DNA of 64,000 nucleotides from the sequence record OP557969.1; one strand, 5' to 3'. The translations under genes were made by a program, and so were the position numbers. Of this stretch, positions 7,401 through 64,000 are shown piece after piece. Each line of letters begins with the position of its first letter. Positions within the stretch are counted from its first letter, which is position 1. The stretch is from Escherichia phage ph0011. The notes under the pieces were generated by a model. It worked only from the letters and a program-made list of their open reading frames with translations. It did no database searches and was not told the DNA's origin.

Positions 7401-7422
7401 GGAGCCACATGGCTCCTTTTTT
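7401..7422. terminator. Bidirectional intrinsic terminator
   Basis: Stem GGAGCC/GGCTCC with ACAT loop, A-run upstream and T-run downstream; sits between convergent genes 6295-7395 (+) and 7421-7885 (-). Confidence 0.75.
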
Positions 7423-7885
7423 AATATCTATATGGTAAACTATTGACAAACTGTGTACCTTCACGTATACTTTCCCATAATGAGTAAAAATCTTTCATCA
7501 AGTTTGTGTTAAGCAATGTGTTTTTTGCACCAGGGTGTAATGGTTTAGGCCACGAGCCGATTTTAACCCATGCATATCCAGAGCTTTCATGATTTAATGT
7601 TGGTATAAACTCATTCTCAACTACGATAACAAATGAATAATATTTAAATTTACCATTTTTTGTACAAAATACATCAAATGGTATAATATCAATAATATTT
7701 GGTATTGAGTCACCTAACTCTTCTTTAATTTCTCTCATAAGACCTTGTATTGGTGTTTCGTCGCGTTCAAGCTTTCCACCAACAAATGCCCAATTGTTCG
7801 AATAGGTACTTCTTTCAGAACGTAAATTTAACATCATATGTCCGGTACTTTTTGATAAAAATATAGCACCAACAGCTTCATTCAT
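7421..7885 (-). CDS. NUDIX hydrolase (154 aa)
   Basis: Nudix box GKLERDETPIQGLMREIKEELG fits Gx5Ex7REUxEExG; ATG 7883-7885 with RBS AAGGAGGTG. Confidence 0.85.
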   Translation of the reverse strand: MNEAVGAIFLSKSTGHMMLNLRSERSTYSNNWAFVGGKLERDETPIQGLMREIKEELGDSIPNIIDIIPFDVFCTKNGKFKYYSFVIVVENEFIPTLNHESSGYAWVKIGSWPKPLHPGAKNTLLNTNLMKDFYSLWESIREGTQFVNSLPYRY

Positions 7886-7897
7886 AACAACACCTCC

Positions 7898-9241
7898 TTA
7901 TTTGTCAGTGAAAGTTATTTTCCAATATCCTTGACGATAAACTGGCATAATACTTTTATGCCATTTAAATTTACCATTGTATCTATAATAACCATTATCT
8001 TCGTTGTTATAAATGTAATTACGCACAGTTGATGGGTCAATTAATTCAGCACCGTCGTTGGTAATTTTAAACAAATAATTCGAAGGAATTTCAGTTTCTT
8101 TGTAAATGATGTTATGCATACTGTTATTTACGTAATATTGTTCAGGTATTGCATCAAAAAGAACTGAGCTTTTTTGGACAAATCCATGAATAGTATAATC
8201 AACTGTATAGTTGCTACTATCAAGCTGAACGATAATTTTATTTGCATCTTCATCTTCACCATATGAAGAAATATAGCCTTTGAGTGGATTATCTTCTTCG
8301 ATTGATTGTTGAAATTTAATACCGACTTTTTTATCATCAAAATTGGGTTCCAAATATTTAAGATATTTTTCCCATGAGTATATACCACCATTAGGGGAAA
8401 CATCGGACAATGACTGACTAACTAAAGTTAGTTGATATGTATCTGGTAAATTATATAAAGAATTAGTTATCTCTTCAACTTTAATACATAAGTTTTTTGG
8501 TGTAAAGACATCAGTGATAATATCCGAATAGTCAGACATTTCAATGTCAAATTCATCACGAGCACCTTTTATATTAGTAGTGATCTGTTGAATCAATTTT
8601 GGTTTTTCAACAATAGCTGGTAAAGAAAACCATATTGTTGTTTCAAATGTCAATACCATAATGTCTAAATCTTGGTCAGTTCCTTGTGGAAATCCACGTG
8701 TAGAGAACTGACAATCAATCAACTCTACATCACTTAGTGATGTCCAATCCAACGGGTTTTCAGATAACTGAAGTTGAATACTCGGTGAAAATAAAGTTGA
8801 AATTTGCTCAAATAATTCCATCTTTGTTTGTATTTGAGTTACCCAGATATTCAAATCAAATGTAAATGTCCAAGGAACTGGGTTATGTCTTACGATTTTA
8901 TATTGTGAATCGAGTTCTTTTTTGTATTCATTAATGGCAGGTGATGTGTTTGTTCCCATAACTAATGTTTCATTCGCATTAGAACGTATACTTTTACGAT
9001 CCAGCTTTAGTTGATTAACACTGATTGTCATAATTGGTGCAGATGGAAGAACATTTTCACTATTACCATTGATAATTGCAGCAGCCATTCTTGATATATC
9101 CGCATAACGACATGGAACCTTTTTATATTTTGGGTTCCCATCAGCATCAACACCATTTTGTACTTGAAATTCACCAAAAACTCTGATAAGATGTTTCAGT
9201 ACTCTGCGAAATTGGCCGTCATAATAATAATCTATTTTCAT
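7898..9241 (-). CDS. Tail completion / sheath stabilizer-like protein (T4 gp15-like, 447 aa)
   Basis: N-terminal pattern YYYDGQFRRVLKHLIRVFGEFQVQ...YKKVPCRYADISRMAAAI resembles the T4 gp15 N-terminus as recalled from memory; ATGA overlap with upstream gene; position next to baseplate/fiber genes. Confidence 0.4.
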   Translation of the reverse strand: MKIDYYYDGQFRRVLKHLIRVFGEFQVQNGVDADGNPKYKKVPCRYADISRMAAAIINGNSENVLPSAPIMTISVNQLKLDRKSIRSNANETLVMGTNTSPAINEYKKELDSQYKIVRHNPVPWTFTFDLNIWVTQIQTKMELFEQISTLFSPSIQLQLSENPLDWTSLSDVELIDCQFSTRGFPQGTDQDLDIMVLTFETTIWFSLPAIVEKPKLIQQITTNIKGARDEFDIEMSDYSDIITDVFTPKNLCIKVEEITNSLYNLPDTYQLTLVSQSLSDVSPNGGIYSWEKYLKYLEPNFDDKKVGIKFQQSIEEDNPLKGYISSYGEDEDANKIIVQLDSSNYTVDYTIHGFVQKSSVLFDAIPEQYYVNNSMHNIIYKETEIPSNYLFKITNDGAELIDPSTVRNYIYNNEDNGYYRYNGKFKWHKSIMPVYRQGYWKITFTDK

Positions 9242-10731
9242 TCTGTGTCCTTATGTATACGATAAGCTGTATTTGGTTTAACTGCGTCATGTAATGGAAC
9301 TTTATTATCACTATTTACGAACTTAGTAAGTGCTAAATCTGCACCTTCCCACGGTTTTCTACCACCGTAATCAAAAATAACCCATGAATTCTTAGTTGCA
9401 TTGAATTCCCACAGTGTAACTGGTGTATAATCAGTACGGTAAAAGTAATCACCATCAACTGCATCAGTAGGGAACATGTTTCCTTCTGGAACTGTACCTC
9501 TTGCTGGTGGGATTTTAGGGCGATAATCCTGTTGTGCATCAATATTTCCATATACACAACTTGATGTGAATGGGTCATTGACGTAAGTTACTTTTGGTTC
9601 GCCCCATTTACCATCATTGTACTGAAAAATGTGTGGTTCTTTATAAAAAATACAAAAATCTTCAATATCTTTTGGTGGATTTTCACTGGTCGTGTATTCA
9701 ACATCACAATTTAACCATTTTTTAACACTTTTATCGTACTGGTATAGTGTATACCCAGTTACATCTACATCATTCTCTTTAAAGAAGAAATCACCATCCA
9801 TAGGTTTCTTAGGAAAAACGGTTCCACGCTTGACTTCCAGTGAAATCCATGTATCATTATCGTATTCTTTAAGTATTGGGTATGTTTTTTTCAAAAAATA
9901 CATACCACTTGCAGGTTCTTCGGGGAAATCATATCCATTAAGCATATACTTTGACAAATCAACAGTATCACGACGGTCATCATACAAATGCTCGTTGGTA
10001 TAATGAATATAAGGCACTTCATCATCAGCTTGCATAATGATACGATTCATAATATCCATTTCATTACTATAGTTACTGTTATCAGATGTACCATCATCAG
10101 TGTTACCATTACCATTATTTGGATCATTTGGGTTATCAGGGTAATTGTTGTTTCCTAGTAAGTCGGAGTACTCAGGAGAGTCAGTCAATGGCTTTACTCG
10201 AAGTTTATAAATGTGATGTTGCCAAGTAACAGAGTAACCTTCTGCTGTACGAAACGCATCTTGGACCACATAGAAGCGATTCAGACCAGAATCTTTACCA
10301 AGAACATCATAATCACGTAAATTTGGTAGTTCAATTACATCACCAGGCATGATTTTTCTACCCAATCGTTGCATCATGGTATTGTAGTGGATTGTAATGT
10401 CCATCGTGTTGAAATTAAAGAACAAACCTGGAATTTTCAAGTCAGGTGTTGCTTCTTGAACTTGATAGACACAACTTAGTGTGATTGCTTCAAGATTATA
10501 GTTTCTATTTGGGGTGTCTCCAAAAATTAAATCACCAATACTTGACACAACCGATCCAGAAGATGTATAATCACCGCCATATGATAAGTCTTTGTTATCT
10601 GCAACTTGTTTTGGGCCGACATAAGCGTAAAGCCACATGTCAACACCACCAATGTTGTATTGTTCAGCAATGGCAGAGTCAATGAACTTGTAATCATTGG
10701 TTCTACCTTTTTTCCACATTCTATATGTCAT
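9238..10731 (-). CDS. Hypothetical structural protein (neck gp13/gp14-like by position, 497 aa)
   Basis: ORF-track start at 10743 is TTG; ATG at 10729-10731 (MTYRMWKKG...) has RBS GGAGA 5 nt upstream, so start moved. Internal repeats DGDYFYRTDY / DGDFFFKENDVDVTGY. Confidence 0.45.
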   Translation of the reverse strand: MTYRMWKKGRTNDYKFIDSAIAEQYNIGGVDMWLYAYVGPKQVADNKDLSYGGDYTSSGSVVSSIGDLIFGDTPNRNYNLEAITLSCVYQVQEATPDLKIPGLFFNFNTMDITIHYNTMMQRLGRKIMPGDVIELPNLRDYDVLGKDSGLNRFYVVQDAFRTAEGYSVTWQHHIYKLRVKPLTDSPEYSDLLGNNNYPDNPNDPNNGNGNTDDGTSDNSNYSNEMDIMNRIIMQADDEVPYIHYTNEHLYDDRRDTVDLSKYMLNGYDFPEEPASGMYFLKKTYPILKEYDNDTWISLEVKRGTVFPKKPMDGDFFFKENDVDVTGYTLYQYDKSVKKWLNCDVEYTTSENPPKDIEDFCIFYKEPHIFQYNDGKWGEPKVTYVNDPFTSSCVYGNIDAQQDYRPKIPPARGTVPEGNMFPTDAVDGDYFYRTDYTPVTLWEFNATKNSWVIFDYGGRKPWEGADLALTKFVNSDNKVPLHDAVKPNTAYRIHKDTE

Positions 10732-10773
10732 ATTTGTCTCCAAAATAATTCGGGTATATCTTTATTTACCATG

Positions 10774-10801
10774 TAGACAAACCATAAGAATGTGATATAA
10801 T
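10774..10801 (+). promoter_or_regulatory. Sigma70-type promoter with extended -10 (TAGACA-N16-TGaTATAAT) upstream of the ClpA-like gene
   Basis: Hexamers read directly; ~40 nt upstream of ATG 10840, which has RBS GGAGA. Confidence 0.5.
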
Positions 10802-10839
10802 GTTTGTTAATTAGAGTGACGTGAATCACAGGAGAATAC

Positions 10840-13128
10840 ATGAATCTTACTCAATTGTTCAAAAAAAGCGACGAACTAGCAACATCCCTAGGTCATACTT
10901 TCTTGACTATTGACCATGTGAGTGCTACAGTACTGACTATTGATAGTATCAAGGGCGTGTTCGAAGAAATGAACATCGATGCTGACAAATTGCATAGTCG
11001 ACTGATGAACTATCTTAAAAATACAACGGTTCCAAGTGCACCAAAAAGTACACTCGATGAAGATGCTAATCGCACTTCACTTCTGGTGAACCGTGTTGTA
11101 CATGAGCTTTCGAAAAAATCAGTCATTGAACAACTAAAAAGTGATGATTTTTCGATTGATGCATATTTTGTTCTATTTGAATGTTTATCATTCCCAAACA
11201 CTGCACTTGAAGCTGCTTTGAAAGAAGAAGGCGTTAGCTGTACCGAAGCTGCTCGTGCACTACAGAAACACGTTGAGGCACTGGAAAAGGGTATCAACCT
11301 TCAAAGTATCAATGACGAACCTACTGGAGATAAAAAAGTGGCTCAACCACAGCAATCATCTAAACAAAAAGGTTTAGCAGACTATACAACAAACCTAACG
11401 GCACTTGCAAAAGAAGGCAAACTAGACCCAATGATTGGTCGCCAAAAAGAGCTATCTGCATTGATTGAGACTCTTGCTCGCAAAACCAAAAAGAATGCCA
11501 TCCTGACTGGTGAAGCTGGTGTTGGTAAAACACAAATCATCGACGGTCTTGCACAAGCAATTGCTGATGGTAATGTACCAGAGCACTTAAAAGATGTTGA
11601 AATTCTTTCCCTAAATGTTGGTGCGTTGACTGCTGGGACTAAGTATCGTGGTGAATTTGAGGAACGTATCGATAATTTACTAAAAGAACTAAAGAAACGT
11701 GAAAACACAATTGTTTTCATTGATGAAATCCATATTATGGTCGGAGCAGGTTCTGCAAGCAACGGTTCAATGGACATGAGCAATATGCTTAAACCAGCAC
11801 TATCACGTGGTGAGATTCGTGTAATTGGTGCAACAACATACGAAGAATATCGTAAAAACATCGAGAAAGATAGTGCATTGACTCGTCGTTTTATGAAAAT
11901 TGATGTTGTTGAACCGTCAATCGATGAAACTCGTGAAATTGTGAACGGTCTTAAATCAACTTATGAAAAATTCCATAACGTTGAGTTTACAAAAGATGCA
12001 ATGGATGCAGTAATTTCTCTCAGTGAGAAGTTCTTGAAAAATAAACACTTCCCAGATAAAGCAATTGACCTAATGGATGCTGCTGCTGCGAAAGTGCGTT
12101 CACGTGATAATAATAGTAAACTAATTACAGAGAATTTGATTCAAGAAGTTGTTGCTGGTATTGCTAACTTGGATATCAACGTGGTTGCATGTACAGAAAG
12201 TGAACGTATGCGTAATCTACCAGATGCACTACGTTCACGTGTTTACGGACAAGAAGAAGCGATTCAAAAATTGGTTGATAATGTAATGGTTGCTCGTGCT
12301 GGTCTACGTGATAAGTCGAGTGTTCAGGGTGCTTTTATGTTTGTTGGTCCGTCAGGTACTGGTAAAACAGAAATTACAAAAGCATTAGCTGAAGCAACGG
12401 GTTCAGAGCTTGTTCGTTTTGATATGTCTGAGTTTTCTCAAGAACATACTGTTTCAAAACTAATTGGTTCCCCTCCAGGTTATGTTGGTCACGATTCTGG
12501 TAATGGTTTGCTATTGGATAAGATTGAGCAGTTTCCTAATGCCATTCTACTACTCGATGAAATCGAGAAAGCAGATCGTAAAGTACTACTAACCTTCCTA
12601 CAGGTTCTGGACGAAGGACGTTTGACTGGCTCACAAGGTAAAACTGTTTACTTCAATAACGTAACTGTTATTATGACAACCAACCTTGGTGCGGCTGATT
12701 CAACAAAGCGTAGTATTGGGATGAGTGGTAGTGAAAGTGCACAAGACAAGGCAATTAAAGCATTCTTACCACCAGAATTCATTAACCGTATTGACAGTAT
12801 TGTTACGTTTAATGAACTAAGTAGTGAAGCAATTGACAGTATCATTGATAAATTCATGGGAAGTTTGAATGAACAAGTTAAACATCGCAACGTAAAAGTT
12901 TCACTAACGAAAGCTGCACGTGGATGGCTTGCAAAAAATGGTGTTCAGGTAGGTATGGGTGCACGACCAATGAAACGTACAATTGAACAAAACATTCGCG
13001 TACCACTAGCGAAGGAAATGTTGTGTGGTTCACTGGTAAATGGTGGTAACATTACATTTGATGTTATCAATGACAAACTTGGTATTAAACCAAAACGTAC
13101 TAAAGCAGTTGAAAAAACACTAGCTTAA
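10840..13128 (+). CDS. ClpA/ClpB-family AAA+ unfoldase (two-ATPase-domain Hsp100, 762 aa)
   Basis: D1 Walker A GEAGVGKT and Walker B IVFIDEIH; D2 Walker A GPSGTGKTE and Walker B LLLDEIEKA; GYVGHDSGNGLL; SIGM tripeptide loop where ClpA carries its ClpP-docking IGL loop; ClpA-like length. Confidence 0.9.
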   Translation: MNLTQLFKKSDELATSLGHTFLTIDHVSATVLTIDSIKGVFEEMNIDADKLHSRLMNYLKNTTVPSAPKSTLDEDANRTSLLVNRVVHELSKKSVIEQLKSDDFSIDAYFVLFECLSFPNTALEAALKEEGVSCTEAARALQKHVEALEKGINLQSINDEPTGDKKVAQPQQSSKQKGLADYTTNLTALAKEGKLDPMIGRQKELSALIETLARKTKKNAILTGEAGVGKTQIIDGLAQAIADGNVPEHLKDVEILSLNVGALTAGTKYRGEFEERIDNLLKELKKRENTIVFIDEIHIMVGAGSASNGSMDMSNMLKPALSRGEIRVIGATTYEEYRKNIEKDSALTRRFMKIDVVEPSIDETREIVNGLKSTYEKFHNVEFTKDAMDAVISLSEKFLKNKHFPDKAIDLMDAAAAKVRSRDNNSKLITENLIQEVVAGIANLDINVVACTESERMRNLPDALRSRVYGQEEAIQKLVDNVMVARAGLRDKSSVQGAFMFVGPSGTGKTEITKALAEATGSELVRFDMSEFSQEHTVSKLIGSPPGYVGHDSGNGLLLDKIEQFPNAILLLDEIEKADRKVLLTFLQVLDEGRLTGSQGKTVYFNNVTVIMTTNLGAADSTKRSIGMSGSESAQDKAIKAFLPPEFINRIDSIVTFNELSSEAIDSIIDKFMGSLNEQVKHRNVKVSLTKAARGWLAKNGVQVGMGARPMKRTIEQNIRVPLAKEMLCGSLVNGGNITFDVINDKLGIKPKRTKAVEKTLA

Positions 13129-13136
13129 AAAACAAA

Positions 13137-13162
13137 AGGAGAGCATTTTGCTCTCCTTTTTT
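13137..13162. terminator. Bidirectional intrinsic terminator between ClpA-like gene and giant ORF
   Basis: Stem AGGAGAGC/GCTCTCCT, loop ATTTT, flanked by A-run and T-run. Confidence 0.8.
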
Positions 13163-13163: not shown

Positions 13164-16100
13164 TTACTTAACTATTAATATTTTTTGAATATCATTACCA
13201 CGAACTCGTAGACTGTTAGTATACACAGAAAGGTCTATTGTATAACTATTTTGAGTATAACGTTTAAACTTATCATAACCGCCCAAATTAATTCCGTTGA
13301 AAGAATATGTAGTATCATGTTTGAAATCGTGTTCTGCACTGTACATTACTCCACGGAGTAAGTTGTTTGTATTTCTAACTTCAACTTTTTCATATCCAAT
13401 CGATATAATGTCACTCTTGTTAGCAGCGGAGCCTGATAACACATTATTTCTAACATTATAATGGCTTACGGAAAGAGGTTGTGCTACATAAGTTGTGTTT
13501 TCTTCACTAATGGTTGTTATGTTAGTGATGGTAGCGTCAGCCACATCAATATACATACTATCAACCATTGGATATTCATACACCCACACACCTTCATTAT
13601 TTTTTGTCGGTTTGATATCTTTCGCATCATATTCAATCACGTTAATTTCTAAACAATCCGGCATTTTAGTTCTTACTAATTCACTAAGAACACCTTCCCC
13701 TGTAATTGGTAGATTATAACCGTTGTCTATAGTAATACCATCATCATTAAATATTTCATTTGATACAACCCAAACATCAACATCATCAGGTGTTACTCCG
13801 TCATTATACTTACCACCATTTAAAGTAGTATCATAAAAAACGTCATAATTAATCACATCAATGGTGTAATTTCTGTTTTGCTCATATAATTTAATATCAC
13901 CCTTGGTAAATTCTGGGTCAGCAAATGTTCTAACACGAACAATGTTCAATGCAAGATGTTGTACTGGCTGATTCAGTTGTCCAAGTGTGATGTTATCATA
14001 TCGAAGAACATTACCAGAACTATCAACCAACTCAATCGTTTCTTTTCCTGTAGTTCTTACAGTGAATAGAATAGGAGTTGTATTATGTTTGATATTAGAC
14101 ACACGTAATATGGTTTCCCATGTACGATTTTGATATCGAATAAAATCTTCACCATCCGGTGTGAAAATCATCACCTTATCACCATCAGATAAGTCACTGT
14201 CAACGATTTCAGCCTCAGTTAAGCTATTAATAGAACGTACACGATAGAAATATTTTTCTTCAAACGGTGATGCCGTTTTATTAATATCATGTTCAATCTT
14301 AGCATATGAAGGAATACTAACAATTGCTTCTGTATGTTTATATGGGTTGATAATTGCCATACCCTCGGTTTTATATCTGCTATTATTACGCAATTGCACT
14401 AGTGATTCAGTATCAAATCCATAACCATCAACAGTGAATCTAATATGCCCAACTGCACGACTAGCTGGATTTATTTCAGATATATCGATAATATAAGGAT
14501 CAACTTCATCATCTTTAACTTCCCATTTGATAGCTGAAGTTTGTGATTCTAATGCAAGGTTGTCAAATGCATTCATATCATTGAAGAACTTAGCTTCAGC
14601 AATACTATCAATTATATATTGATAATCCGAATACATAGGGTTATTTTGATCTTGTGGTAAATCATCTAGATTTATTTCAGCAAGTTTAATCATTTCACCA
14701 TTAGTAATGAAATAATCTTCCATGAAATCATCAATACTTTTATCATCTGGTATACTTTGGTATTCACCATTGATATTTAAGTAGACATGTTTTCTTGGCA
14801 TCATAGTAATAGCATAGATATCAATAGGTGTTTTTGAAAGAATTTCTTCTGCTTTTTCATACATATCAGCAGAGTCTTTATCAAACAACCCTCTCATGGC
14901 TGCCAGTACATGGACCGCATCGGAATAGAAACGTGTATCACCACCAATTTCATCATAACGATAAACATATACACCGTATTCAACTTCAAGTTTCACTTTA
15001 ATATCATGTTCAGATGCATCTGGATATTTTTCTGTAATAAAAGAAATATATTTTTCATATAATTCTTTACTTATTTCAAAATATCCATAGTTATAATCAT
15101 TACTTGAAGAAAAACCTAATGGTAGTCTAGTACTTGGGTTATCATTATAAACCAAACCACTAAATCCACAGCCAACCTCATCATGAATCTTATCATCACT
15201 GATATCTTTATAAAGTTTCAAACGGTTTGCTAATGTATTGTACTGAACATAGTGTCGAAGGTCAGTAAACATTTCATTATGCGTTGATTCGTTATAAATG
15301 CGTTCAAGTGTAGCAGTAAATTCATCAGTTGCTTCTAAATCATCAGCATGTTCTTTATACCACTGGTTTACACCATTTGCAGTTCCTAGTGTTACATCTA
15401 ATTCTGGATAGTACGTTTGTAATAGATACGCATTAACCAAGTCAAATGATTGTTCATTATACACAGGGTAAGAATATATATAACGTTGTAATTCATAGGT
15501 ATTAACAGAATCTTTTTCATTTGATTGATACTTATTATTAACACTAATCAACTCATTAATGTTTGCCAAATCTTTATTCGGTTTACATTGAATATTATCA
15601 TAATGCATAATAATATCAATTTCTTGAAATCTTCTATTTGGTGCAATAAAATCACTAGGCAGAGAACCTACTTTCTCCCATTTTTTAGTGGTTTCATTAT
15701 ATTGAGCGTACTCATAATCCCAAATATCCTTTTCAGTTTTAACCCACGAACCATCAACAAAAATATACCCATTAGGATCTAAATCATTACAAAGACCTTT
15801 GATTAAGTCATCATCAGACGTTTTTTGTTCTATCTGTGAACGGATTTTTGTACGATATGGTTTCACCTCTTCAAAGTACTCAACAATTTGGTTAATCAAA
15901 TTATCATTTGAATAGTTTTGTACCAAAGATTGTTCCAAACCAACAATATAGATATAGGATGTTTTAAATACCCAATCAACAACACCCTGTTCTACGTGTA
16001 CATATTTGACCATATCAAAAACAATTTCACTTTGGTGTAAATCGAAAGAATTTTTTAGCAAAGCAAGTGCTTTTCTAATATTAATTTCACGATTACTAAG

Positions 16101-19100
16101 TGAACCGTCCTCATTATGAACATTATAATCTACATAAAACAAATCGTTAAGCTCAATAGTACTACGTTGTCGCCCAATAGCTTTCCAATAAATTGAATCA
16201 CGTGATTGAGATTTGATATATAAAGTCCAAATGTTTTCACTATCTGTGACTCTAATTATATCACCAACTTGATAGTTTTTAGCATTTGCTTCTTCTAAAC
16301 TTATCTCTTGGATGTAAGCAGTTTTGCTATCATACCCAACATCATACCAATCTGCATAAGACCAGTATTGAGTCATATCTAATGATGTTCCGAGTGATTC
16401 AACATAATCCGATTGCTTAATCATTTTATGTTGTCCTTCACCTTTATTTTCTAAAGTTATAGTAACAACACTACCTGCATTAGCTGGACTATTCATTAAC
16501 TGAATATATCCGTTTTCATCGAAGTGAATAAAATAAACAGCACTAGTTGATAATGGAGTCGGTAGATAACCGCTAGAACTTAAAATAACAGCGTCATTTT
16601 CTTTAAATTTATCCTTTTCAACTGCAATTACAAGTTCATTATTATAAGTTAATACACGGAACGAAACCTCATTAGGGTTAACTTCTGTAGTTTTAACATT
16701 AAACACATCTTCCATAACAACACTATTAGTAGTTATGTTTTGTGATCTATAATAATTATTTGCACTTTCTACAAAGTTTCTACGTGCCTCTATTATATTC
16801 TGGAACCAAGTTTTATTAGAGCCTAAACCAGTGTCAACTTCTGGATATAATAAATCTACAACCTTACCTGACTTCGTAGTTTCTTGACCAATTAGAGAGT
16901 TCCACATAGAGTCCCAAATTAGTGGGTTAAAGTTGTAACTTTCACCCTCTTTGCAAAGTTGATATTGGTCATGTTTAACAACTTCTGTATTGTCCATATA
17001 GTAAGAAATAGTCAAAACACTAGTATCATCATTAACTTCAAACTGCATATTACTAAGAATAAAAGAGTTTTCATTAATTGGTGCGAACCAAGGAATGTTC
17101 AACTGTGATGGATCTTTAATAATACGTGCAATGTCAGTACATGATTTTGTTCTGGTATGAATAGGTGGTACATAAATTGTATCACGTACCCAGAAATAGT
17201 ATTTTGTTACATAACTGTCAGTGGAGCTATCATATTCCAAAAATGTACTATAATTATCTTCAAGTGCTGTTCCACTTGGAAGATACATATTATTATTTTT
17301 GTTTTTCTTAGCAACATCTTTACAGTACTTATCCCAGTTATATGGTTCTACTGGTGAACAAACCCATTCCAACACATCAATAGTACTATGTGGCAACAAA
17401 CGACCCCAGTTGTAACGTTTATATTCATTGGTTGCGTCAATATCAACATTTCCATCTGCATCATAAATGGCACGAGTATAATCCAAATAAAAAGCGGTGC
17501 TAGTGTTCCACCATACTTGACCAACTTTTTCAGCACCCCACGCCTGAACCAATTCGCCATTGCTATTATATTGAGCAGGGTCGATTGGTGAAGTATATGT
17601 TACGTTTTGCATTGCTGCACCAGGAATAACACCATTAATTGGGTCATAAACATTTAGATATAATGCAGTAATGTTTGTACGTTCATCATATGTAGTTGGA
17701 CGTTCAAACAAAGTACTTTGTGGTGCTTTAAAACTATATTTTTTATCAATATATGCTTGACGCTCTTCAGTACTCACAAAACGCGAAACATAACGATACA
17801 AACGAGGGCGTGTATCTGGGTCAGTAAATTCGATATTAATTGAAGTATCAAATGGAACCACCATAACTTTGGAATCATCCCCAGCAGTATAATATTGACT
17901 TTCTACTGTTAAAGTATCTGGCATAAAGTTAGTTTCGTCCACAAAATAATAGTAATCACCATCTTCAAGAGGGATATCATCAGATAGAGTTACTTTACAG
18001 AATTTCTCAGCGTAAACATCTGTGGTTTCGATTGGTGTAATAGAAACCATTTTAACATTAGTGTCAATTAATTCAAAAATGTTCCATAACCCATTTCCAT
18101 CTTTGAACATCCATACTGATTCAGGATTTTCACCTTTACCATTGATATACAACATACGGTCATTGAATGCAGTACTGAAATCTTTCGTAGTATAAGATAC
18201 TTCATCTAATGTAACTGGACCAATATCAGGCAGTTGGATGTGTTCACTTCTACCACTACGCATTGGGAAAGAGAATTTACCATTTGGACGAGTAATCCAT
18301 TGTGGGTCTTTTCCTTGTTCACCAAAGAATACAATATTGTTTCCATTACCATTTGATGTTGCATTTTCATCAAAAGACATCATTTGTGGCTGCTGCTTAA
18401 ATTGGTCATTAATCAATTTAAATTGAAGGTTTTTCTTTCCATCGATGTTACCATATGTACCAACTTTAAACGCCCATTCTTGTAATGCTTTATATTCATC
18501 AGTATCATAGGATTTAGAAACACGAAGAACACGTTCTAAAACTTGGTTTGTACCTTTGTCATGAATAAATCCTTTATAGAAATCAACACGACTTACATCA
18601 CTACTAATCATACGTTGTAGATAATCACGAGATTGATAACCAATCAAATGGCTAGACAATTCTTGTAATTGTACATCGCTAACGGGATGTTCATTGTCAT
18701 AGTAATGTTGAAAATCTGTTACTAGAGTTTCAAATGATGGTATTGTACCAGATTCCAAAATAATAAAACCAGGTGCTTGTAATCTACCAGTCCATGAACC
18801 AGTAATGTACCCATACATTTTAATTAGTTCCTGGATAGAACCATAAGTTGGTTGATAGATATAATCACCAAAAATAGTCTTATCATCAAATATAACAGCA
18901 TGTTCATATGAACACAAACTTAAGCGGATTAATGCAATACGCTTATTAGAATCGGTTGTTCTAACAGTGAATATATTACCAATACGTGAAGTTTCGATTT
19001 CATATTGACGAATACCTTGGTTATTATCATCAAGCAATGACCACACACCACCATTATTTTGTGTAATAGACTGTACTGAACCAAAATCCGAACCAAACTT

Positions 19101-22100
19101 AGCATTTGCAGCACTTGGTGTACAAGAGATAAATTCGCCAGTTACCAGAGGACTCTGACTCCATATCACAAAATCTTTAGCAATAGTGTGCCAATCTTGC
19201 TGAATACCATCTTGATTAACATCTTCGAAAATCCAGCCATGTTCTTTAAGATACTCACCATATCCACAAATAAAAGTGTATACTTCTTGATAACTATTGA
19301 AAATAGTCCCATATTCAATAGAAGCCTCAGACTTCCATTCATTATAATGAACAATATTACGGTTTTCCAATTTAAGAGTTACTTTTCTTCCATTTTTTAC
19401 TGGAAGTTTATATTTAAATTTCGCACCAACCAAATCATATCCATCAATTTGATATGCACTACCATTCCATGTAATTTTGATGGCACTCATCTGTTCATCG
19501 CGAATGTTATTCGAACGCACCAGACCAATCGTTTGGTTTTCTTGTGAAATAAGACCAAATGATTTAGCGTTGAATGTTAATTGATCTGCTTTAGTAAAGC
19601 CACCAATTTTATGTCCCACATTTACGTAAGACGAACGTACAACATCTCCATATTTTGTAGTAATATTTTTATTTTGATACATCAAATAATCACTAACAAA
19701 CATTTGATATCCAATTGTTCTTGTGTTATCTTCACCATGAACAGTTGTGTTTTTATCAAAATTCACACGATTGCGGGTATCCCCGTACAGAAATTGTTCA
19801 CCAGTGGTGATAATTTCTTTCAAATTGTCATTACGGGTATCCCAATAATAGTTGGCAAATTGTGCAGGTTTAGCTTTATACAAAAGTAACATTTGGTCAT
19901 ATGCAAACAATGTGGTGTTCATATACGTAAATTCCATATCACCCATGTCGCCATACGCCCAAGGTTCTGCTCGGTGAACTAAAGATCCAGACACTAATCC
20001 TAAAACTTCAGGAGCAATATACTCAACCACACAAATATCTACACCGGATGATGTTTTATTTCCAGTTTTAGTAATTTTAAATGGTTGTACACCAAATCTT
20101 TTATATTTGTCATACTGACCACGGCGGTCGCCATATAAAATTGTCCCAGTACTACTATCGCCGATTGTATCATTTACATCCCAAAGTCCACTAGGAACCA
20201 AATCACCTTGTTCATCAGTTACAAGTGCCTCATATACATAAACTACATCACCATCACGTTCACCAACTTGGACAGCGGTTGGTTCATACTCTTGGTTCCA
20301 CCAAGTAGGACGTTGTGTAAACCCAAACATTTCCCATGGATGTGTAGCAGGGCGATATGTACCATATTGATCAGTATAGATTGCACGCCATGAACCACGA
20401 GCAGGAATTTCAGTACTTTTACCATCAACAACATAATAGGTTCCAGTATAGTTCCATGTTCTCCAGTTATTAGGATCATAATCATGTGTACTATTACTAA
20501 TACCATTAGATGCAGTGAAGTTAATATAACCACGTAATAGAAGTGTTTGTTTTTCTTCTGCACTATATTCAGTTTTTGTAAAATATGGTGTAGGGAAAAG
20601 ATCATCACTATTCAATACAGGGACATAATCAACATCTTTGAATTTATTGTCAATACTATTGAAAATTCTATTTTCAAGTTCATATACAACATCATCCATT
20701 TTATCAACACCATTGATAACACGGTATGCTTTAGAAATAATACCAGTATGGCTGATATTATAATAGCTAGGTTTACTACCAGCAGTTAGGAATGTTGCTT
20801 TCTCAGGAACGTATGCTTGTAGAATACCTAAAAACTGTGGAGTTGGTGGTATAAATGCACGAATAAGACCAGATGTACTACCCACATTGTCATAATAGAA
20901 TGGGAATGAACTATCACGACCCATATTAATAGTTGCCAAAATAGAATCAACGATGTTAGCTGCACTATTTTGTAAAAAGTTAGTTGGGTTTTCATTGTAC
21001 ATTCTAAGCATTTGTGTATTAAATTTATTAATGAATCTGAAATATTCAGATTGCATAAACATAGTTGCTTCAAATAAATCAATATCTTCATTTGCAGTAT
21101 GAGCCATCAATGGGAGCATAGAAGCTTCATTTTGAATAATTTTAGTTCCTACTCCATTATTCACTAATCCCTTAGCTAAACGTTCTTCATAATCGTTGAA
21201 GTCATCAGCATAACCACTAGTGATATTCTGTTGAATAATATCCTGAAAATGAAGAGTATAGTCTCCTTGATTAATATATATAATATTGGAGTTATATGGG
21301 TTATTTTGTAAGTTAATTGGAACTTCATATGCACCTAATTCTTTATCAGGTGTTACAGTACTGCTATAAGTTCTAATTTGAATAACAGAATCATCATCCA
21401 ATTCAACACTGTTATCGATTGTGATACTTTGCACTTGACCTTTTAATACATTCTTGGTATATTTGGAGATATTAACACCATCAACAACAACTTCAATAAT
21501 ATCAGAGTCATTGTCTAAAACTTTTTGTGCCAATTCAAAAGTATGGTCATATTTTAAAACCTGAATACCATCACCACTAATTTGATGCCAGTCCAAATAT
21601 GTTTCACGTTCAGCTTTATAGTACTGATATGTTTTATCAACTTCGATGACATATGCATACATACCCTCGACTGGTTCTTTAAACAGTTCCATATCATAAA
21701 CAGAACTAAAGACTCGATACATATCAGTACGTTTGACTTGAGGTGTCTGTTTTACAAATTGTTTAGAGAATTCTTTTGAACGCACCCAATCAGTTTGAAG
21801 ATTCATTTTATTATTTTCATCAATGATGTTATAATAATACAAACCACCGATTTCAACTTCAACACCAAGATGGTCATATGTATAACGTTGTGATTGTAAA
21901 AAGTTTTCATAAGTGTAATAGTTATAATCACCAAGTTCAATGTTATACCCATATACACTATCAGCCGCGTAGTTATAGTTGATTTTAAATCCAAATAATG
22001 GTGAACCTTTAAATGTACTGGATGGGTACGTGGTGCTGTTATCTAGTTTGATTCCATTACGATCATAAAGTTGGAATTGAGGAAAGACGTTAACACTTGG

Positions 22101-23165
22101 CTTCGCCTGTGCACGAACCCATAATGTTCCATTCCAATACATAGAATTATTGCCGTACTCATTTCCTTTTGTGACCAAAACTACGTCACCATTTTGTGGT
22201 TCACCACTTGGACGGGACTCAGTTTCTTCATTTGGATCTAGTGCTAAGCCATAAACGCGTGTACCATCTTGCATTTTTTTAACATACACTTTATAAATTC
22301 TATTGTTTTCACCATCATTACCAATACTGGTGAATAGAATACGCATACCATCTTGTGGAATAATACCATCAATGCGAATACCGCTATTGACATCTTTTTG
22401 AATAATATCTTCAGGTTTGATACTATCAGAAAAAAGTTCAACTGTTCCACGGAATTTTGTACCGTAGTTAATTAGCTCGATATTTTTATTATATTCGATA
22501 ATTGGTGCACGAGCACGAATAAAACGAGAATCTTGCATTAGCTCTTCAGTCAAGATAGAACCGTCTTCTAGTGTTTCACCTAAAGTATACCAAAAGTTTT
22601 GCAAAGACCATGTATTACCATTAAGTGCTCCACGTTCCATTACAATGTAATCAGGTGTAATGATATTATAAGAGTTTTTGGTATCCCAAAGATACGAACT
22701 AAAATTGTTCATTTTATTTGGGTTAATTGCAGGAGTCCATGCATAAAACTTACCGTTAAATAAACGACTTTCATTATCGGTTAGTGCTCCGTAATGACTC
22801 ATGTATCCAACAAGATCATCATAAAATTGAATTGAACGAATTGTTGAATCATCATTTTTAGAGACATAAGCAGTGGACAACTGATATAGTTGACGTGCAA
22901 CAGAACTTTCATGCAAGAAGATATTACCAGCGGCAGCCGGAGAACCCATGTCACCAATATAACCGTCAACCAATTCGTTTTCAGCCGGATTAAACCATTG
23001 TTGAATAACATCATCACTGACTTTTTGAATATCTTCTAAGCCTTGCATCCACTCAGGCAATCTTTTGATAAAAAGCTTTTTCTGTACTGCTTCAGCCATC
23101 TGTGTAGGTTGAAACTTAAAATTATTAGTCATTTTTTCTGGACTCCATATAATTCGTTCATTCAT
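13164..23165 (-). CDS. Giant virion structural protein (3,333 aa), likely fused baseplate-wedge/fiber protein
   Basis: Uninterrupted 10-kb ORF with ATG 23163-23165; Y/N/D/T-rich; sits in the slot between gp6-like and neck genes where T4 has gp7-gp12/wac; own terminators on both sides. Confidence 0.6.
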   Translation of the reverse strand: MNERIIWSPEKMTNNFKFQPTQMAEAVQKKLFIKRLPEWMQGLEDIQKVSDDVIQQWFNPAENELVDGYIGDMGSPAAAGNIFLHESSVARQLYQLSTAYVSKNDDSTIRSIQFYDDLVGYMSHYGALTDNESRLFNGKFYAWTPAINPNKMNNFSSYLWDTKNSYNIITPDYIVMERGALNGNTWSLQNFWYTLGETLEDGSILTEELMQDSRFIRARAPIIEYNKNIELINYGTKFRGTVELFSDSIKPEDIIQKDVNSGIRIDGIIPQDGMRILFTSIGNDGENNRIYKVYVKKMQDGTRVYGLALDPNEETESRPSGEPQNGDVVLVTKGNEYGNNSMYWNGTLWVRAQAKPSVNVFPQFQLYDRNGIKLDNSTTYPSSTFKGSPLFGFKINYNYAADSVYGYNIELGDYNYYTYENFLQSQRYTYDHLGVEVEIGGLYYYNIIDENNKMNLQTDWVRSKEFSKQFVKQTPQVKRTDMYRVFSSVYDMELFKEPVEGMYAYVIEVDKTYQYYKAERETYLDWHQISGDGIQVLKYDHTFELAQKVLDNDSDIIEVVVDGVNISKYTKNVLKGQVQSITIDNSVELDDDSVIQIRTYSSTVTPDKELGAYEVPINLQNNPYNSNIIYINQGDYTLHFQDIIQQNITSGYADDFNDYEERLAKGLVNNGVGTKIIQNEASMLPLMAHTANEDIDLFEATMFMQSEYFRFINKFNTQMLRMYNENPTNFLQNSAANIVDSILATINMGRDSSFPFYYDNVGSTSGLIRAFIPPTPQFLGILQAYVPEKATFLTAGSKPSYYNISHTGIISKAYRVINGVDKMDDVVYELENRIFNSIDNKFKDVDYVPVLNSDDLFPTPYFTKTEYSAEEKQTLLLRGYINFTASNGISNSTHDYDPNNWRTWNYTGTYYVVDGKSTEIPARGSWRAIYTDQYGTYRPATHPWEMFGFTQRPTWWNQEYEPTAVQVGERDGDVVYVYEALVTDEQGDLVPSGLWDVNDTIGDSSTGTILYGDRRGQYDKYKRFGVQPFKITKTGNKTSSGVDICVVEYIAPEVLGLVSGSLVHRAEPWAYGDMGDMEFTYMNTTLFAYDQMLLLYKAKPAQFANYYWDTRNDNLKEIITTGEQFLYGDTRNRVNFDKNTTVHGEDNTRTIGYQMFVSDYLMYQNKNITTKYGDVVRSSYVNVGHKIGGFTKADQLTFNAKSFGLISQENQTIGLVRSNNIRDEQMSAIKITWNGSAYQIDGYDLVGAKFKYKLPVKNGRKVTLKLENRNIVHYNEWKSEASIEYGTIFNSYQEVYTFICGYGEYLKEHGWIFEDVNQDGIQQDWHTIAKDFVIWSQSPLVTGEFISCTPSAANAKFGSDFGSVQSITQNNGGVWSLLDDNNQGIRQYEIETSRIGNIFTVRTTDSNKRIALIRLSLCSYEHAVIFDDKTIFGDYIYQPTYGSIQELIKMYGYITGSWTGRLQAPGFIILESGTIPSFETLVTDFQHYYDNEHPVSDVQLQELSSHLIGYQSRDYLQRMISSDVSRVDFYKGFIHDKGTNQVLERVLRVSKSYDTDEYKALQEWAFKVGTYGNIDGKKNLQFKLINDQFKQQPQMMSFDENATSNGNGNNIVFFGEQGKDPQWITRPNGKFSFPMRSGRSEHIQLPDIGPVTLDEVSYTTKDFSTAFNDRMLYINGKGENPESVWMFKDGNGLWNIFELIDTNVKMVSITPIETTDVYAEKFCKVTLSDDIPLEDGDYYYFVDETNFMPDTLTVESQYYTAGDDSKVMVVPFDTSINIEFTDPDTRPRLYRYVSRFVSTEERQAYIDKKYSFKAPQSTLFERPTTYDERTNITALYLNVYDPINGVIPGAAMQNVTYTSPIDPAQYNSNGELVQAWGAEKVGQVWWNTSTAFYLDYTRAIYDADGNVDIDATNEYKRYNWGRLLPHSTIDVLEWVCSPVEPYNWDKYCKDVAKKNKNNNMYLPSGTALEDNYSTFLEYDSSTDSYVTKYYFWVRDTIYVPPIHTRTKSCTDIARIIKDPSQLNIPWFAPINENSFILSNMQFEVNDDTSVLTISYYMDNTEVVKHDQYQLCKEGESYNFNPLIWDSMWNSLIGQETTKSGKVVDLLYPEVDTGLGSNKTWFQNIIEARRNFVESANNYYRSQNITTNSVVMEDVFNVKTTEVNPNEVSFRVLTYNNELVIAVEKDKFKENDAVILSSSGYLPTPLSTSAVYFIHFDENGYIQLMNSPANAGSVVTITLENKGEGQHKMIKQSDYVESLGTSLDMTQYWSYADWYDVGYDSKTAYIQEISLEEANAKNYQVGDIIRVTDSENIWTLYIKSQSRDSIYWKAIGRQRSTIELNDLFYVDYNVHNEDGSLSNREINIRKALALLKNSFDLHQSEIVFDMVKYVHVEQGVVDWVFKTSYIYIVGLEQSLVQNYSNDNLINQIVEYFEEVKPYRTKIRSQIEQKTSDDDLIKGLCNDLDPNGYIFVDGSWVKTEKDIWDYEYAQYNETTKKWEKVGSLPSDFIAPNRRFQEIDIIMHYDNIQCKPNKDLANINELISVNNKYQSNEKDSVNTYELQRYIYSYPVYNEQSFDLVNAYLLQTYYPELDVTLGTANGVNQWYKEHADDLEATDEFTATLERIYNESTHNEMFTDLRHYVQYNTLANRLKLYKDISDDKIHDEVGCGFSGLVYNDNPSTRLPLGFSSSNDYNYGYFEISKELYEKYISFITEKYPDASEHDIKVKLEVEYGVYVYRYDEIGGDTRFYSDAVHVLAAMRGLFDKDSADMYEKAEEILSKTPIDIYAITMMPRKHVYLNINGEYQSIPDDKSIDDFMEDYFITNGEMIKLAEINLDDLPQDQNNPMYSDYQYIIDSIAEAKFFNDMNAFDNLALESQTSAIKWEVKDDEVDPYIIDISEINPASRAVGHIRFTVDGYGFDTESLVQLRNNSRYKTEGMAIINPYKHTEAIVSIPSYAKIEHDINKTASPFEEKYFYRVRSINSLTEAEIVDSDLSDGDKVMIFTPDGEDFIRYQNRTWETILRVSNIKHNTTPILFTVRTTGKETIELVDSSGNVLRYDNITLGQLNQPVQHLALNIVRVRTFADPEFTKGDIKLYEQNRNYTIDVINYDVFYDTTLNGGKYNDGVTPDDVDVWVVSNEIFNDDGITIDNGYNLPITGEGVLSELVRTKMPDCLEINVIEYDAKDIKPTKNNEGVWVYEYPMVDSMYIDVADATITNITTISEENTTYVAQPLSVSHYNVRNNVLSGSAANKSDIISIGYEKVEVRNTNNLLRGVMYSAEHDFKHDTTYSFNGINLGGYDKFKRYTQNSYTIDLSVYTNSLRVRGNDIQKILIVK

Positions 23166-23214: not shown

Positions 23215-26200
23215 TTAAGAACCGATATTAATATTACTTTTAGCTAATGAGTTAACTATTTGAACATTTTCAACCGATGCAGTACTCAAGAATATTTGGT
23301 CCGAGCGTGAAGGTATTTCAAACAAAGAACCAAATTTGGAATTCGGATTTTGTGCAACTATAACAATTGTACTAATATGTCTTCCTAGTTGGGAATGTAT
23401 ATAAGTACATAAATCGGTATAATAGAAACTTTCACCAAAATCCCAGTTATCAACATTAAAATATTCATTCGTTAATGCTATCACATTTTGACGAATTTCA
23501 TCATCACTCATCGTGCTATTTGGTAGCTTAACAACTTTAAAATCAGCTTTATAATCTTCCGCAGCACTGTTCCCAAATAATGGTAGATACTCTGCACTAT
23601 GCCAGATAATACTATCACTGATGACTATTTTTTGTTCGACATCTTTGAACATATTTTTCAATTCAACTGATGTTGGAGGCTTCGGCATACTTCCAACTGC
23701 ATTATTTTTTAACCACACATCAACTTCAGTTTTGTATGAGTTTGTTAGTACATACATATCAATTAGGTTTGTTCTACTAGGATCAATACGGTTATCATCA
23801 GGTGCATAATGTTTCCAATGGAAATCTATACTGGTACGAGCATTCGTCTTAACCGTATATTGCGATGTAACATCTTTATAACCATAATAATCCAACTTCT
23901 GATTCTCATCAGCATTAGTACCCATGTTATTAATTGAACGATAAAACGCAAGTTCAGGACTAATAGTTCCGGTATCATCGGAATATGTCAAATTACTGAT
24001 TAATTGCCCCAAACGATCATTGTTATTACCAACAGTTTGTTCAATAAAATAATATTTACCATCATATTTAAAACACACTAAGAATCCAGAGCCTTTACTA
24101 TACAATCCACTCAATGTGTTAGAACGAATTGCATTATTTCGTACAAATTCGGTTCTTTTATATGTATTAGGTTCAGCTAATGCTTGTTCCATCGTATAAG
24201 ACCATGACGTATCCAGTAGTGAGAATGTATCATTTGGTAATGACAGTACTGAAATTGTAAAATCATTATTTTCCTTGAATATCAATATACCACCGTATTT
24301 TAATGCATCAGAACCTGACCATTCTGGAACAATATCTTTAAATTGATTCGGTTCCAATGGTATACCATTACTATCTACTTTTCTAGAGGTGACAATAATA
24401 CGAGAACCATCCAGATATCCATTTTCTTGCTGTATTGTGTCATAAATTTGAAAATCTATATTACTTGTTAGACCTGAGTTACTTGTGCTTGTTGTGTTGG
24501 ATGATAAAATTTCAATTTTATCACTTTGAACTGTACCAGAACTAATATCAGTTATTTTTTTGGATGAAACGAAATAGAATTTGACTTTATTACCACCAAC
24601 AAATATATATTCAATACCATTTGCATCAAATTCCCAGGTTTCTGCTGTATATTTAACGTTTATTACAACTAAAACTTCGTGACCATTGTAAACAATAGTA
24701 TCATCATTTGTACTAATTTCTACTGGAACCCATGAAGTTGTTTCTTTATCATGAACAATAACAAAATCAGTTTTTTTATCAAGCATTGCAGAAATAGACT
24801 GAACCTCAACCGAATCAAATCTTGTTCTATATGGTAATATATAATCAATTGCTTGCATTTTACTAGAAACTGGCGTACTTAATACATAAAACCCATTATC
24901 TAAAACACTAATAACACTTGCCCATATAGTTGTTGTAGAGTTGGAGAACTTAATTAAAGTGCCAACCTGATACGAATTATATACTGTCCCAGATGATCCC
25001 ATGATTCTTCCATATGTATTGGTAGTATAATTCGAATTATAAACAGGTGTCCATGATTGTTGAAGTTCAATTCCAATAGTATTTGGTGGATATGCTTGAT
25101 AACGTTGTATCACAGCATTTTCACCAATTAGTGGTTGAATATTGTCAATTACGATACTGGCATTTGTTTTTGTAGTTGGTAGTAATAAAGATTTATTAAA
25201 TTTAGTATTTTCTTTATATAATGCACCATCATCACTAAAAACATCAGTATTTTGATATTTTCCAGTAGGGTCATTAATATCAATGAATCGAGACTGTCCA
25301 CTATAAATTCTATTAATAGCTTTTGACTTAAGTACAGTGTTACCTAAACTGAGTGGAGCAATATTATAATCTTCACCATTAACAAAACGGTTTTGTGTGT
25401 AATACATTTGTGGTGCTCGTGCTTTAATTTGCTCAATAGTCTCAGCACTTTGTGCACGATCTGATTCGTATTGTAATGAAAAGCGTACATCTAGTGTGCT
25501 TGATTCATAACTGGATTGTGTTTTAGTACGATACGTATATTTTACACTTTTATTTTGAATTTCTGACGTTTTGATGTTATATGTTTTACCATTACTAACA
25601 CGATACCACACACGGAATGTACCACGCGGAACAACACCACTTCTGGAATCTGGATATTTAATTGTTATTTGATCTTTATCACGAGTTGTAACTGCAAAAA
25701 TTGTTTTAAGCTGGCGATTGACCGTGTTGTATGCAATACTTTCCATGGATGGAACTTTTGTCCATTTGGTACGAACAATACCATCTTCATTGATTTCTTG
25801 TACCCAAACATCAGTTTCATTTATGTTATCAACGTTTACCTCTTGTATTCTATTTTCTTCACGAATATTATATTGGTAATCTTGATATGTCAATGTTCCT
25901 TGGATAAAATACACAAAAAAACCAGTATTTGGTGAACTGAATCCATTACCATCATTTTGGTACACAATATATTTTTGCTCTTGTGGTTCTGGATGTCTCT
26001 CTTCAACACCAACAGATGTAATGTCAGGGTTAACCACTTCAAATGTCATTGATTCACCATTAACAGTTGCAACAAATGGTATACTTGGAGCACTCATAGG
26101 AATAGTATTCATTCGATAAAGCTGACGTGACACCCCATTGACATCAATACGTTTAACTGGATTACCGAACTGATTAGTACTAACAAATGAACTATTCATA

Positions 26201-26676: not shown

Positions 26677-26743
26677 AATTTATTCCTTTAAATCAGTAAA
26701 GTACTAGTTCAGTACTGGGAATTATATAGAAATATTTATTCAA

Positions 26744-26773
26744 AAAGAAAAGCACCCCGAAGAGTGCTTTTTT
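26744..26773. terminator. Intrinsic terminator hairpin downstream of gp25-like gene
   Basis: Stem AAGCAC/GTGCTT with loop CCCGAAGA, A-run and T-run on either side. Confidence 0.6.
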
Positions 26774-26778
26774 AATAT

Positions 26779-33738: not shown

Positions 33739-33767
33739 TGGGACAAACTGGTTCTTAGTGCTATAAT
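33739..33767 (+). promoter_or_regulatory. Extended -10 sigma70-type promoter (TGcTATAAT with weak -35 TGGGAC) for gp55-like gene
   Basis: Read directly; ~58 nt upstream of ATG 33825. Confidence 0.45.
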
Positions 33768-58431: not shown

Positions 58432-58432
58432 T

Positions 58433-60959: not shown

Positions 60960-64000
<3,041 letters not shown>

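Follow-up and report, generated by a model that had tools for sequence, protein, structure and literature searches.

In this study we report the analysis of a clpA-like gene of Escherichia phage ph0011, located at positions 10840-13128 on the plus strand of a stretch of 64,000 nucleotides (record OP557969.1), which was analysed as a whole and is called here the window. The DNA of the window is 89% identical to that of the 121Q/PBECO4-type jumbo coliphages (genus Asteriusvirus). It must be noted that a clpA-like gene is already known in jumbo phages, since it is annotated in dozens of their genomes in GenBank and is catalogued as a PHROG. A preliminary description of the locus had presented the gene as a moron-type insertion among virion genes, whose product could dock onto host ClpP and redirect proteolysis.

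The clpA-like gene and its product

The gene starts with ATG and codes for 762 amino acids (aa) followed by a stop codon. An identical protein, WAE77172.1 of Escherichia phage ph0011, is annotated as Clp ATP-binding subunit, and the PHROG match was phrog_4871 (1025 bits). The top family was ClpA (TIGR02639, E = 1e-226, 754.5 bits), with residues 3-740 of the protein aligned to 5-732 of the model, and the scores of ClpB and ClpV were lower (631 and 548 bits, respectively). Judged by these profiles, ClpA is the best-matching family, yet the protein is no equivalog of bacterial ClpA, given that its scores did not reach the curated equivalog cut-offs of TIGR02639 (993.15 bits) and NF008263 (646.4 vs. 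1350 bits). The closest solved structure was that of Escherichia coli ClpA (1ksf, E = 2e-178), in a continuous alignment of residues 17-744 to residues 20-737. No middle domain is present, as the comparison with ClpA gave one continuous stretch and those with ClpB, ClpC, and ClpV gave two. Pfam recognized the domains AAA, AAA_lid_9, AAA_2, and ClpB_D2-small, in addition to Clp_N at aa 11-59, so that the four families for which the preliminary description had proposed a profile search (Clp_N, AAA, AAA_2, and ClpB_D2-small) were all matched.

The N-terminal domain (aa 1-150, 10840-11289) is of a divergent Clp_N type with an insertion at about aa 100-110. Clp_N passed the Pfam cut-off for the first repeat only (aa 11-59, 23.3 vs. 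20.7 bits); the alignments to the ClpA profile and to 1ksf extend across the domain, which is helical in the AlphaFold2 model, with a predicted local distance difference test (pLDDT) value of 50-64 over aa 61-110. It is kept among the phage homologues and is unlike that of E. coli (mean column entropy of 1.73 bits). A flexible linker to the first ATPase module (aa 151-185, 11290-11394; pLDDT <50 at aa 156-176) is the most variable segment of the protein (entropy of 2.25 bits).

The D1 AAA+ module (aa 186-440, 11395-12159), delimited by Pfam, alignment and motif positions, contains Walker A (GEAGVGKT, aa 224-231, 11509-11532), the pore loop KYR in GTKYRGEFE (aa 266-274, within 11635-11661), Walker B (IVFIDEIH, aa 291-298, 11710-11733), and the Arg fingers RR (aa 349-350, within 11878-11892). 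The D2 AAA+ module with its small domain (aa 441-745, 12160-13074), delimited by Pfam, alignment and the match of the AlphaFold2 model to ClpA, carries Walker A (GPSGTGKT, aa 503-510, 12346-12369), the pore loop GYVG in PPGYVGH (aa 545-551, within 12472-12492), Walker B (ILLLDEIEKA, aa 569-578, 12544-12573), the Arg finger NR (aa 649-650, within 12772-12795), and the sensor-2 motif GARP (aa 707-710, within 12958-12978). All the Walker A/B pairs, Arg-finger sites and pore loops and the sensor-2 GARP were invariant in an alignment of 84 homologous sequences. The model had a mean pLDDT of 78 and template modelling scores of up to 0.88 against the ClpA protomers of ClpAP structures solved by cryo-electron microscopy; its low-confidence parts were the linker between the N-terminal domain and D1, the pore loops, and residues 624-630. 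The open reading frame (ORF) is predicted to code for a functional hexameric unfoldase of the ClpA type (class I Hsp100). In this respect the full-length two-ring Clp ATPase with both Walker A/B sets intact that had been read from the DNA was borne out by Pfam, TIGR02639 and the motif positions.

The tripeptide IGM (aa 626-628, 12715-12723, plus strand) aligns to I617-G618-L619, the IGL tripeptide of E. coli ClpA. In this alignment, which the preliminary description had proposed, SIGM (aa 625-628) corresponds column for column to S616-I617-G618-L619, as that description had supposed. The IGL residues insert into a hydrophobic pocket of ClpP, of which 13 residues have been defined for ClpAP (10.1101/820209). 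In the model, IGM falls within a loop predicted to be flexible (pLDDT <50, aa 624-630), and the Met is a non-canonical third residue with respect to the docking tripeptide [I/L/V]-G-[F/L]. The corresponding segment of ClpB has about the same length as the docking loop, and retention of the loop was dropped as an argument for ClpA over ClpB.

Transcription unit and genomic slot

All the neighbours of clpA (7898-9241, 9238-10743, 13164-23165, and 23215-26676) are on the minus strand, so that the gene indeed stands opposite to the virion genes around it, as noted from the beginning. Within the 108-bp divergent region 5' of clpA, the promoter scan and reading of the sequence revealed a promoter at 10774-10801 on the plus strand, formed by a −35-like hexamer (TAGACA, 10774-10779) and an extended −10 element (TGaTATAAT, 10793-10801), with a spacing of 16 nt and 11 of 12 matches plus the TG. 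Over the entire region there was no excess of promoter-like sites (11 found vs. 11.6 expected). In spite of this, we consider the clpA promoter to be real, because each of the seven phages compared has TGnTATAAT 5' of its clpA homologue and because GACA-N13-GTGnTATAAT recurs at three intergenic sites on the plus strand (33759-33767, 38556-38564, and 60942-60950). The first of these copies precedes an ORF (33825-34664) that by its position corresponds to the late sigma factor gp591 of 121Q and had no Pfam match, and the last one is located upstream of the ORF at 61017. The extended −10 promoter that had been attributed to the gene was thereby confirmed. The ribosome-binding site AGGAG (10831-10835, plus strand) ends 4 nt 5' of the ATG, and it is kept in six of the seven aligned phages, with AAGGA in RaK2.

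At the 3' end, clpA and the convergent gene share an intrinsic terminator (13134-13160), a 12-bp hairpin preceded by an A-run and followed by a T-run. Its folding energies on the two strands were −16.8 and −17.3 kcal/mol (z = −6.1 and −4.6), and we consider it bidirectional because of the good fold on both strands together with the two runs. All seven phages have a hairpin flanked in the same way, and its stem occurs in three sequence versions; this conservation was judged from folds of single sequences and from reading of the stems, as the RNAalifold consensus was poor owing to the misalignment of the hairpins by MAFFT. The preliminary description had placed bidirectional terminators on both sides of the gene, which holds for the 3' side only. 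On the 5' side, the sole candidate (10675-10704) was weak, with three GC pairs, a loop of 8 nt and a position inside the coding sequence of the neighbour, and it was rejected.

The gene is thus a unit of its own, with promoter and terminator apart from the surrounding operon. Since the promoter class is common to the putative late sigma gene, clpA is probably expressed before the surrounding late virion genes or independently of them. The timing of ClpA and ClpP is not mentioned in the omics paper on PA5oct, and a search for RNA sequencing data of any Asteriusvirus found none. The window showed no enrichment of the T4-type late promoter TATAAATA (6 found vs. 10 expected), and exact cores were found at 46310 and 47519, that is, 5' of the scaffold gene and of the major capsid gene, respectively. 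A late promoter 5' of the upstream neighbour of clpA is weakly suggested, with conservation limited to a TAAATA core.

This divergent upstream neighbour codes for a virion structural protein of 497 aa (9238-10731, minus strand, PHROG 11591), whose homologue CBB_234 was detected in virions. The ORF extracted mechanically begins at a TTG at 10743 (501 aa); the ATG at 10731 is likely the real start, because it follows GGAG and because gene calls in a metagenome and in relatives also give 497 aa. The convergent downstream neighbour codes for a giant virion protein of 3333 aa (13164-23165, minus strand, PHROG 10938), with homologues in the virions of CBB (CBB_236) and phAPEC6 (gp245, 382 kDa). The order in this slot is NUDIX, gp15-like tail completion, virion protein of about 500 aa, ClpA on the opposite strand, virion protein of about 3330 aa, and gp6-like baseplate wedge. 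It is identical in 121Q, RaK2, GAP32, CBB, SE_PL, Yersinia phage fHe-Yen9-04 and one metagenomic contig, which includes at least four named genera, and clpA is at the same locus in 38 of 38 relatives at the nucleotide level. The NUDIX/MutT hydrolase gene (7421-7885, minus strand) lies within the tail/baseplate block in all the relatives examined. In 121Q, an HNH endonuclease gene (gp584, 'associated with group I intron', L018 101-865) separates the gp6-like baseplate gene from the gp25-like one; in the window this place has only about 100 bp (26677-26778) and the mobile element is absent. The synteny of PA5oct was not counted, since BLASTP found no homology between the 3333-aa protein and the 2236-aa tail protein beside ClpA in that phage.

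With respect to composition, the guanine plus cytosine content at third codon positions (GC3) of clpA is 0.257, compared with 0.20-0.27 in 12 other large ORFs of the window; its overall G+C content of 0.388 exceeds the average of the window (0.345) and is matched by two further large genes (0.388-0.389). The identity of the protein to its homologues is 95% for 121Q gp581, 75% for RaK2, 69% for SE_PL, and 60-61% for GAP32, CBB, Yersinia fHe-Yen9-04, and Serratia BF. In a large protein database the phage clade extended continuously from 91 to 52% identity, followed by a drop to about 41% for cellular ClpA, and host ClpA (about 41%) was no nearer than other bacterial ClpAs. The conservation of ClpA in Rak2-like phages had been stated previously (PMC6102473; also PMC7824862). 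Of the features proper to a moron, clpA possesses a promoter and a terminator of its own and lacks the patchy presence and the deviating composition. The conserved slot, the phage-like GC3 and the continuous clade with its gap to cellular ClpA indicate that clpA is old and has been inherited vertically as a core gene in the RaK2/121Q-like jumbo myoviruses, rather than having been inserted recently. The moron-type origin thus has to be abandoned: across the RaK2-like phages clpA is a conserved syntenic core gene, which the preliminary description itself had named as the finding contrary to its proposal.

ClpP, the ClpS-like protein and the variable docking loop

The genera of phages that carry this ClpA also carry homologues found with E. 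coli ClpP as query, 35-38% identical over residues 17-203. In 121Q the protein is gp464 (L006 5944-6639; Pfam CLP_protease, 4e-41), encoded about 84 kb from clpA; for the listed relatives taken together the distance is about 85 kb. The triad Ser97, His122, Asp171 was invariant in seven phage ClpPs, in which the N-terminal gating segment is also kept, and 9 of the 13 pocket residues are conserved or conservatively replaced; by these sequence features the phage protein is a bona fide cellular-type ClpP. The RaK2-like ClpPs have in common a C-terminal extension of about 20 aa, NEKGxYLVKRRGGVEEWV (loci L006 and L012-L016). In addition, in a single sequencing run (SRR32103870) one contig had the exact ClpA of the window and another one a phage ClpP. 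The preliminary description was correct in that there is no ClpP gene in the window, as tblastn confirmed, but this absence is misleading because relatives encode their own ClpP elsewhere.

A ClpS-domain protein of 177-181 aa exceeded the Pfam cut-off in 71 records from the genera that carry this ClpA, for example in 121Q (gp48, L017 2489-3034) and GAP32 (GAP32_314, L011 2321-2854). It is longer by about 70 residues at the N-terminus and about 35 at the C-terminus, and its gene adjoins an IF3-like gene. In the two homologues aligned, 121Q gp48 and GAP32_314, residues D35, D36, and H66 of E. coli ClpS, which we take to be those that bind the N-degron, are not kept. A ClpP with the triad and a ClpS-fold protein were both found in 121Q, A4, RaK2, SE_PL, GAP32, Yen9-04, and PA5oct. 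ClpX is absent from the enterobacterial RaK2-like phages, so that ClpA is their sole Clp ATPase. Since relatives encode ClpP and a ClpS-fold protein and no ClpX, the most economical partner of this ClpA would be the phage's own ClpP rather than that of the host.

Two 121Q proteins with Clp-like names, gp473 ('ClpP-like', L006 10000-10608) and gp475 ('ClpYQ-like', 10936-11532), had no Pfam match and were therefore left out of the Clp set. The N-terminus of gp473 is hydrophobic and resembles a signal peptide, and an SPGG motif is retained in this protein. Some short records labelled as phage (OR845177.1 and similar ones, for example a 3-kb contig of 'Escherichia phage EC22.5-2') carry clpP-clpX 100% identical to those of E. 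coli and look like host contamination, which inflates the counts of phage ClpP and ClpX. In the window there is also a gene for a GroES/Cpn10-like co-chaperonin (58370-58732, plus strand; Pfam Cpn10, 9e-17), which matches 121Q gp615. A proteostasis set encoded by the phage is suggested by this gene in combination with ClpA and with the DnaJ-like genes that relatives carry.

The docking tripeptide was surveyed in an alignment of 75 sequences of the phage clade and 8 cellular ClpAs. All eight cellular proteins have [I/M]G[F/L]. In the phage clade, tripeptides with a hydrophobic third residue (IGM, LGM, MGM, IGV, IGL, LGL, IGF, LGF, and VGF) were found along with a group characterized by a small or polar third residue: IGA (9 sequences), IGG (5), LGG, IAG, LGH, TGM, and TAI. 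One gene of the IGG type is in the usual syntenic slot, which argues that the genes with variant tripeptides are no stray paralogues. The tripeptide follows the subclades, with IGM here and in 121Q, LGL in the A4-like phages, IGV in RaK2, MNM in SE_PL, and LGM in GAP32. It differs between Escherichia phages (IGM, LGL), Klebsiella phages (IGV), and Salmonella phages (MNM), and the ClpPs of these hosts are nearly identical. A tripeptide that varies while the host pocket is nearly invariant argues against selection by that pocket, and it is compatible with two explanations, namely co-evolution with the phage ClpP and a relaxed need for ClpP docking.

Possible roles of the phage ClpA

Our preferred interpretation, to which we give a probability of roughly 0.58, is that this core gene codes for a cytoplasmic ClpA unfoldase that serves a phage-encoded ClpP with a ClpS-fold adaptor. 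The gene would be transcribed alone from its sigma-70-type extended −10 promoter, with transcription stopping at the bidirectional hairpin, and in the cytoplasm of the infected cell the protein would provide the ATPase component of a Clp protease encoded by the phage. Recognition of substrates would depend on the divergent N-domain, the phage ClpS-fold adaptor, or both; the substrates would then be threaded by the KYR and GYVG pore loops and handed to the phage ClpP docked by the IGM loop. From the co-occurrence of the genes we infer both the physical coupling of ClpA and ClpP and the choice between phage and host ClpP. Candidate substrates include host proteins, regulators of the phage, and giant virion proteins that have misfolded. 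It is also conceivable, though we hold it to be rather improbable, that ClpA, the remodelled ClpP and the altered ClpS-fold adaptor form a private degradation machine insulated from that of the host. In that case, co-evolution with the phage ClpP would explain the fast-evolving, shortened ClpA loop, the adaptor would have lost the canonical N-degron pocket residues and gained extra domains, and private substrates would be degraded during a long infection cycle with no cross-talk with host ClpA, ClpX, and ClpP.

Several observations weigh against a unfoldase that serves a phage ClpP. None of ClpP, ClpS, and ClpX was found by tblastn in the 64-kb window, and ClpP in this phage is deduced from its relatives, in which clpA, clpP, and the clpS-like gene are dispersed (about 85 kb apart) and form no operon. 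The docking loop is 2-4 residues shorter than that of E. coli and lacks I620 and H621. In the phage ClpPs, 4 of the 13 pocket residues are changed (Y60T/V/S, F82S/C/N/Y, L114G, and R192P/A/D/E). Some phage-clade tripeptides have no glycine, as do MNM and MSM of the M/L-N/S-M/I group that includes SE_PL, and the mean entropy of the tripeptide is 1.74 bits (2.44 at the third position) vs. 0.67 for the D2 large domain, a variability which would be unexpected for an obligatory partner of ClpP. Moreover, no interpretable pattern of co-variation between the ClpA tripeptide and the ClpP pocket was seen in seven genome pairs; 121Q (IGM) and A4 (LGL) have identical ClpP pockets despite their differing tripeptides.

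The main alternative is that the protein would act without ClpP, as ClpA does on RepA or as ClpB and ClpV do, in the form of an unfoldase or assembly chaperone for very large virion proteins such as the adjacent 3333-aa baseplate protein in tail/baseplate assembly. We regard this as possible but unlikely. In its favour, at least four named genera keep the proximity to the giant virion protein and to the tail-completion genes, the docking tripeptide belongs to the most weakly conserved positions of D2, with IGG, IGA, and MNM in some lineages, and the GroES-like and DnaJ-like genes suggest an investment in folding; in this regard, Iyer et al. proposed a translocase or virion-assembly role (PMC7824862). 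However, synteny alone may be historical, and the sigma-70-like promoter is shared with a pre-late gene and not with the surrounding late genes. Furthermore, all the listed relatives keep a catalytically intact ClpP with its gating loops and have no other phage Clp ATPase, and the modelled loop is still flexible, Gly/Ser-rich with hydrophobic residues, and ClpA-like. Published virion proteomes also bear on the location of the protein. Mass spectrometry of CBB virions detected CBB_233, CBB_234, CBB_236, and CBB_237, and CBB_235 (ClpA) is the one missing. The phAPEC6 virion list includes gp244, gp245 and gp248 and does not include gp246, which is ClpA as deduced from gene order; gp186 of PA5oct (ClpA) has no mass spectrometry flag, and in the RaK2 paper the only virion proteins named as unexpected and non-structural were gp092 and gp113. 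ClpA is absent from the published virion proteomes checked, and we take it not to be packaged into virions.

This absence also speaks against a function in head maturation, by which ClpA would feed scaffold or core proteins to ClpP acting as the prohead protease. PHROG and RefSeq label the phage ClpP as 'head maturation protease', and low levels of ClpP peptides were reported in virion preparations of CBB (one peptide) and PA5oct. However, the phage ClpP is of cellular type, as its identity to E. coli ClpP indicates, and the window has a dedicated T4 gp21-type prohead protease gene (45675-46298, plus strand; Peptidase_S77, 1e-20), adjoining the scaffold gene (46365-47480) and the major capsid gene (47572-48747). 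Proteases of the same type are present in CBB (CBB_255), RaK2 (gp092), and PA5oct (gp152). Because of this dedicated protease beside the scaffold and capsid genes, we conclude that ClpP is not the head protease, and a part of ClpA in head maturation appears very improbable. The original proposal, in which the product of a moron uses SIGM to dock onto host ClpP and so redirects host proteolysis, deserves somewhat more credit, though we consider it quite unlikely. It has in its favour the IGM at the homologous docking position, the unit with its own promoter and terminator on the opposite strand, and the window without ClpP; in addition, the pocket residues are mostly hydrophobic and alike in phage and host ClpP, so that cross-docking is conceivable. 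On the other hand, the gene is not patchy and occupies the same locus in all the listed relatives, its composition is fully phage-like, its product is no closer to host ClpA than to other bacterial ClpAs, and its tripeptide differs among phages whose hosts have nearly identical ClpPs. The lineage also has a ClpP and a ClpS-like protein of its own. Of that proposal, the homologous position of IGM stands, and docking onto host ClpP in particular is weakened by the ClpP and ClpS-fold protein of the relatives and by the variable tripeptide; such docking need not be invoked any more, and we do not favour it.

No biochemical characterization of a phage-encoded ClpA/ClpP/ClpS set was found in the literature searched. 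If the trio were a private protease, it would represent a virus that brings its own regulated proteolysis, and synthetic biology could draw on it for orthogonal ClpAP pairs of natural origin. The question of its function is made testable by the tripeptide being unusually variable though ClpP is always co-inherited, and by ClpA being the only Clp ATPase in these phages.

In comparison with E. coli ClpA (1ksf, 1r6b, and 6w1z), the phage protein has the same N-domain, D1 and D2 arrangement without M-domain, with 41% identity over residues 17-744. They share the Walker, sensor, Arg-finger, and pore-loop motifs and a hydrophobic-Gly-hydrophobic tripeptide at the IGL position, and the predicted fold superposes. 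The phage protein differs in belonging to a separate clade and in its divergent N-domain with an insertion, its IGM in a shorter loop, and its scores below the equivalog cut-offs. ClpB, ClpV, and ClpC likewise have two AAA+ rings with a similar D1/D2 fold, but the middle domain is lacking here, and the alignments to ClpB and ClpC break in two whereas that to ClpA is continuous. The ClpAs of the RaK2-like jumbo phages (121Q gp581, RaK2 ORF069, GAP32_229, and CBB_235) are of the same family, with the same slot and transcription-unit design, and show no essential difference, the tripeptide varying by subclade. Other giant phages likewise carry Clp components of cellular type, such as ClpA, ClpX, ClpP, and ClpS in PA5oct, those of Atu_ph07, and ClpXP in phage G and the Lak phages. 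PA5oct encodes ClpX, in contrast to the enterobacterial RaK2-like phages, and its ClpA, whose gene adjoins a DnaJ gene, has the canonical IGF and is 41% identical to the RaK2-like clade and 44% to cellular ClpA.

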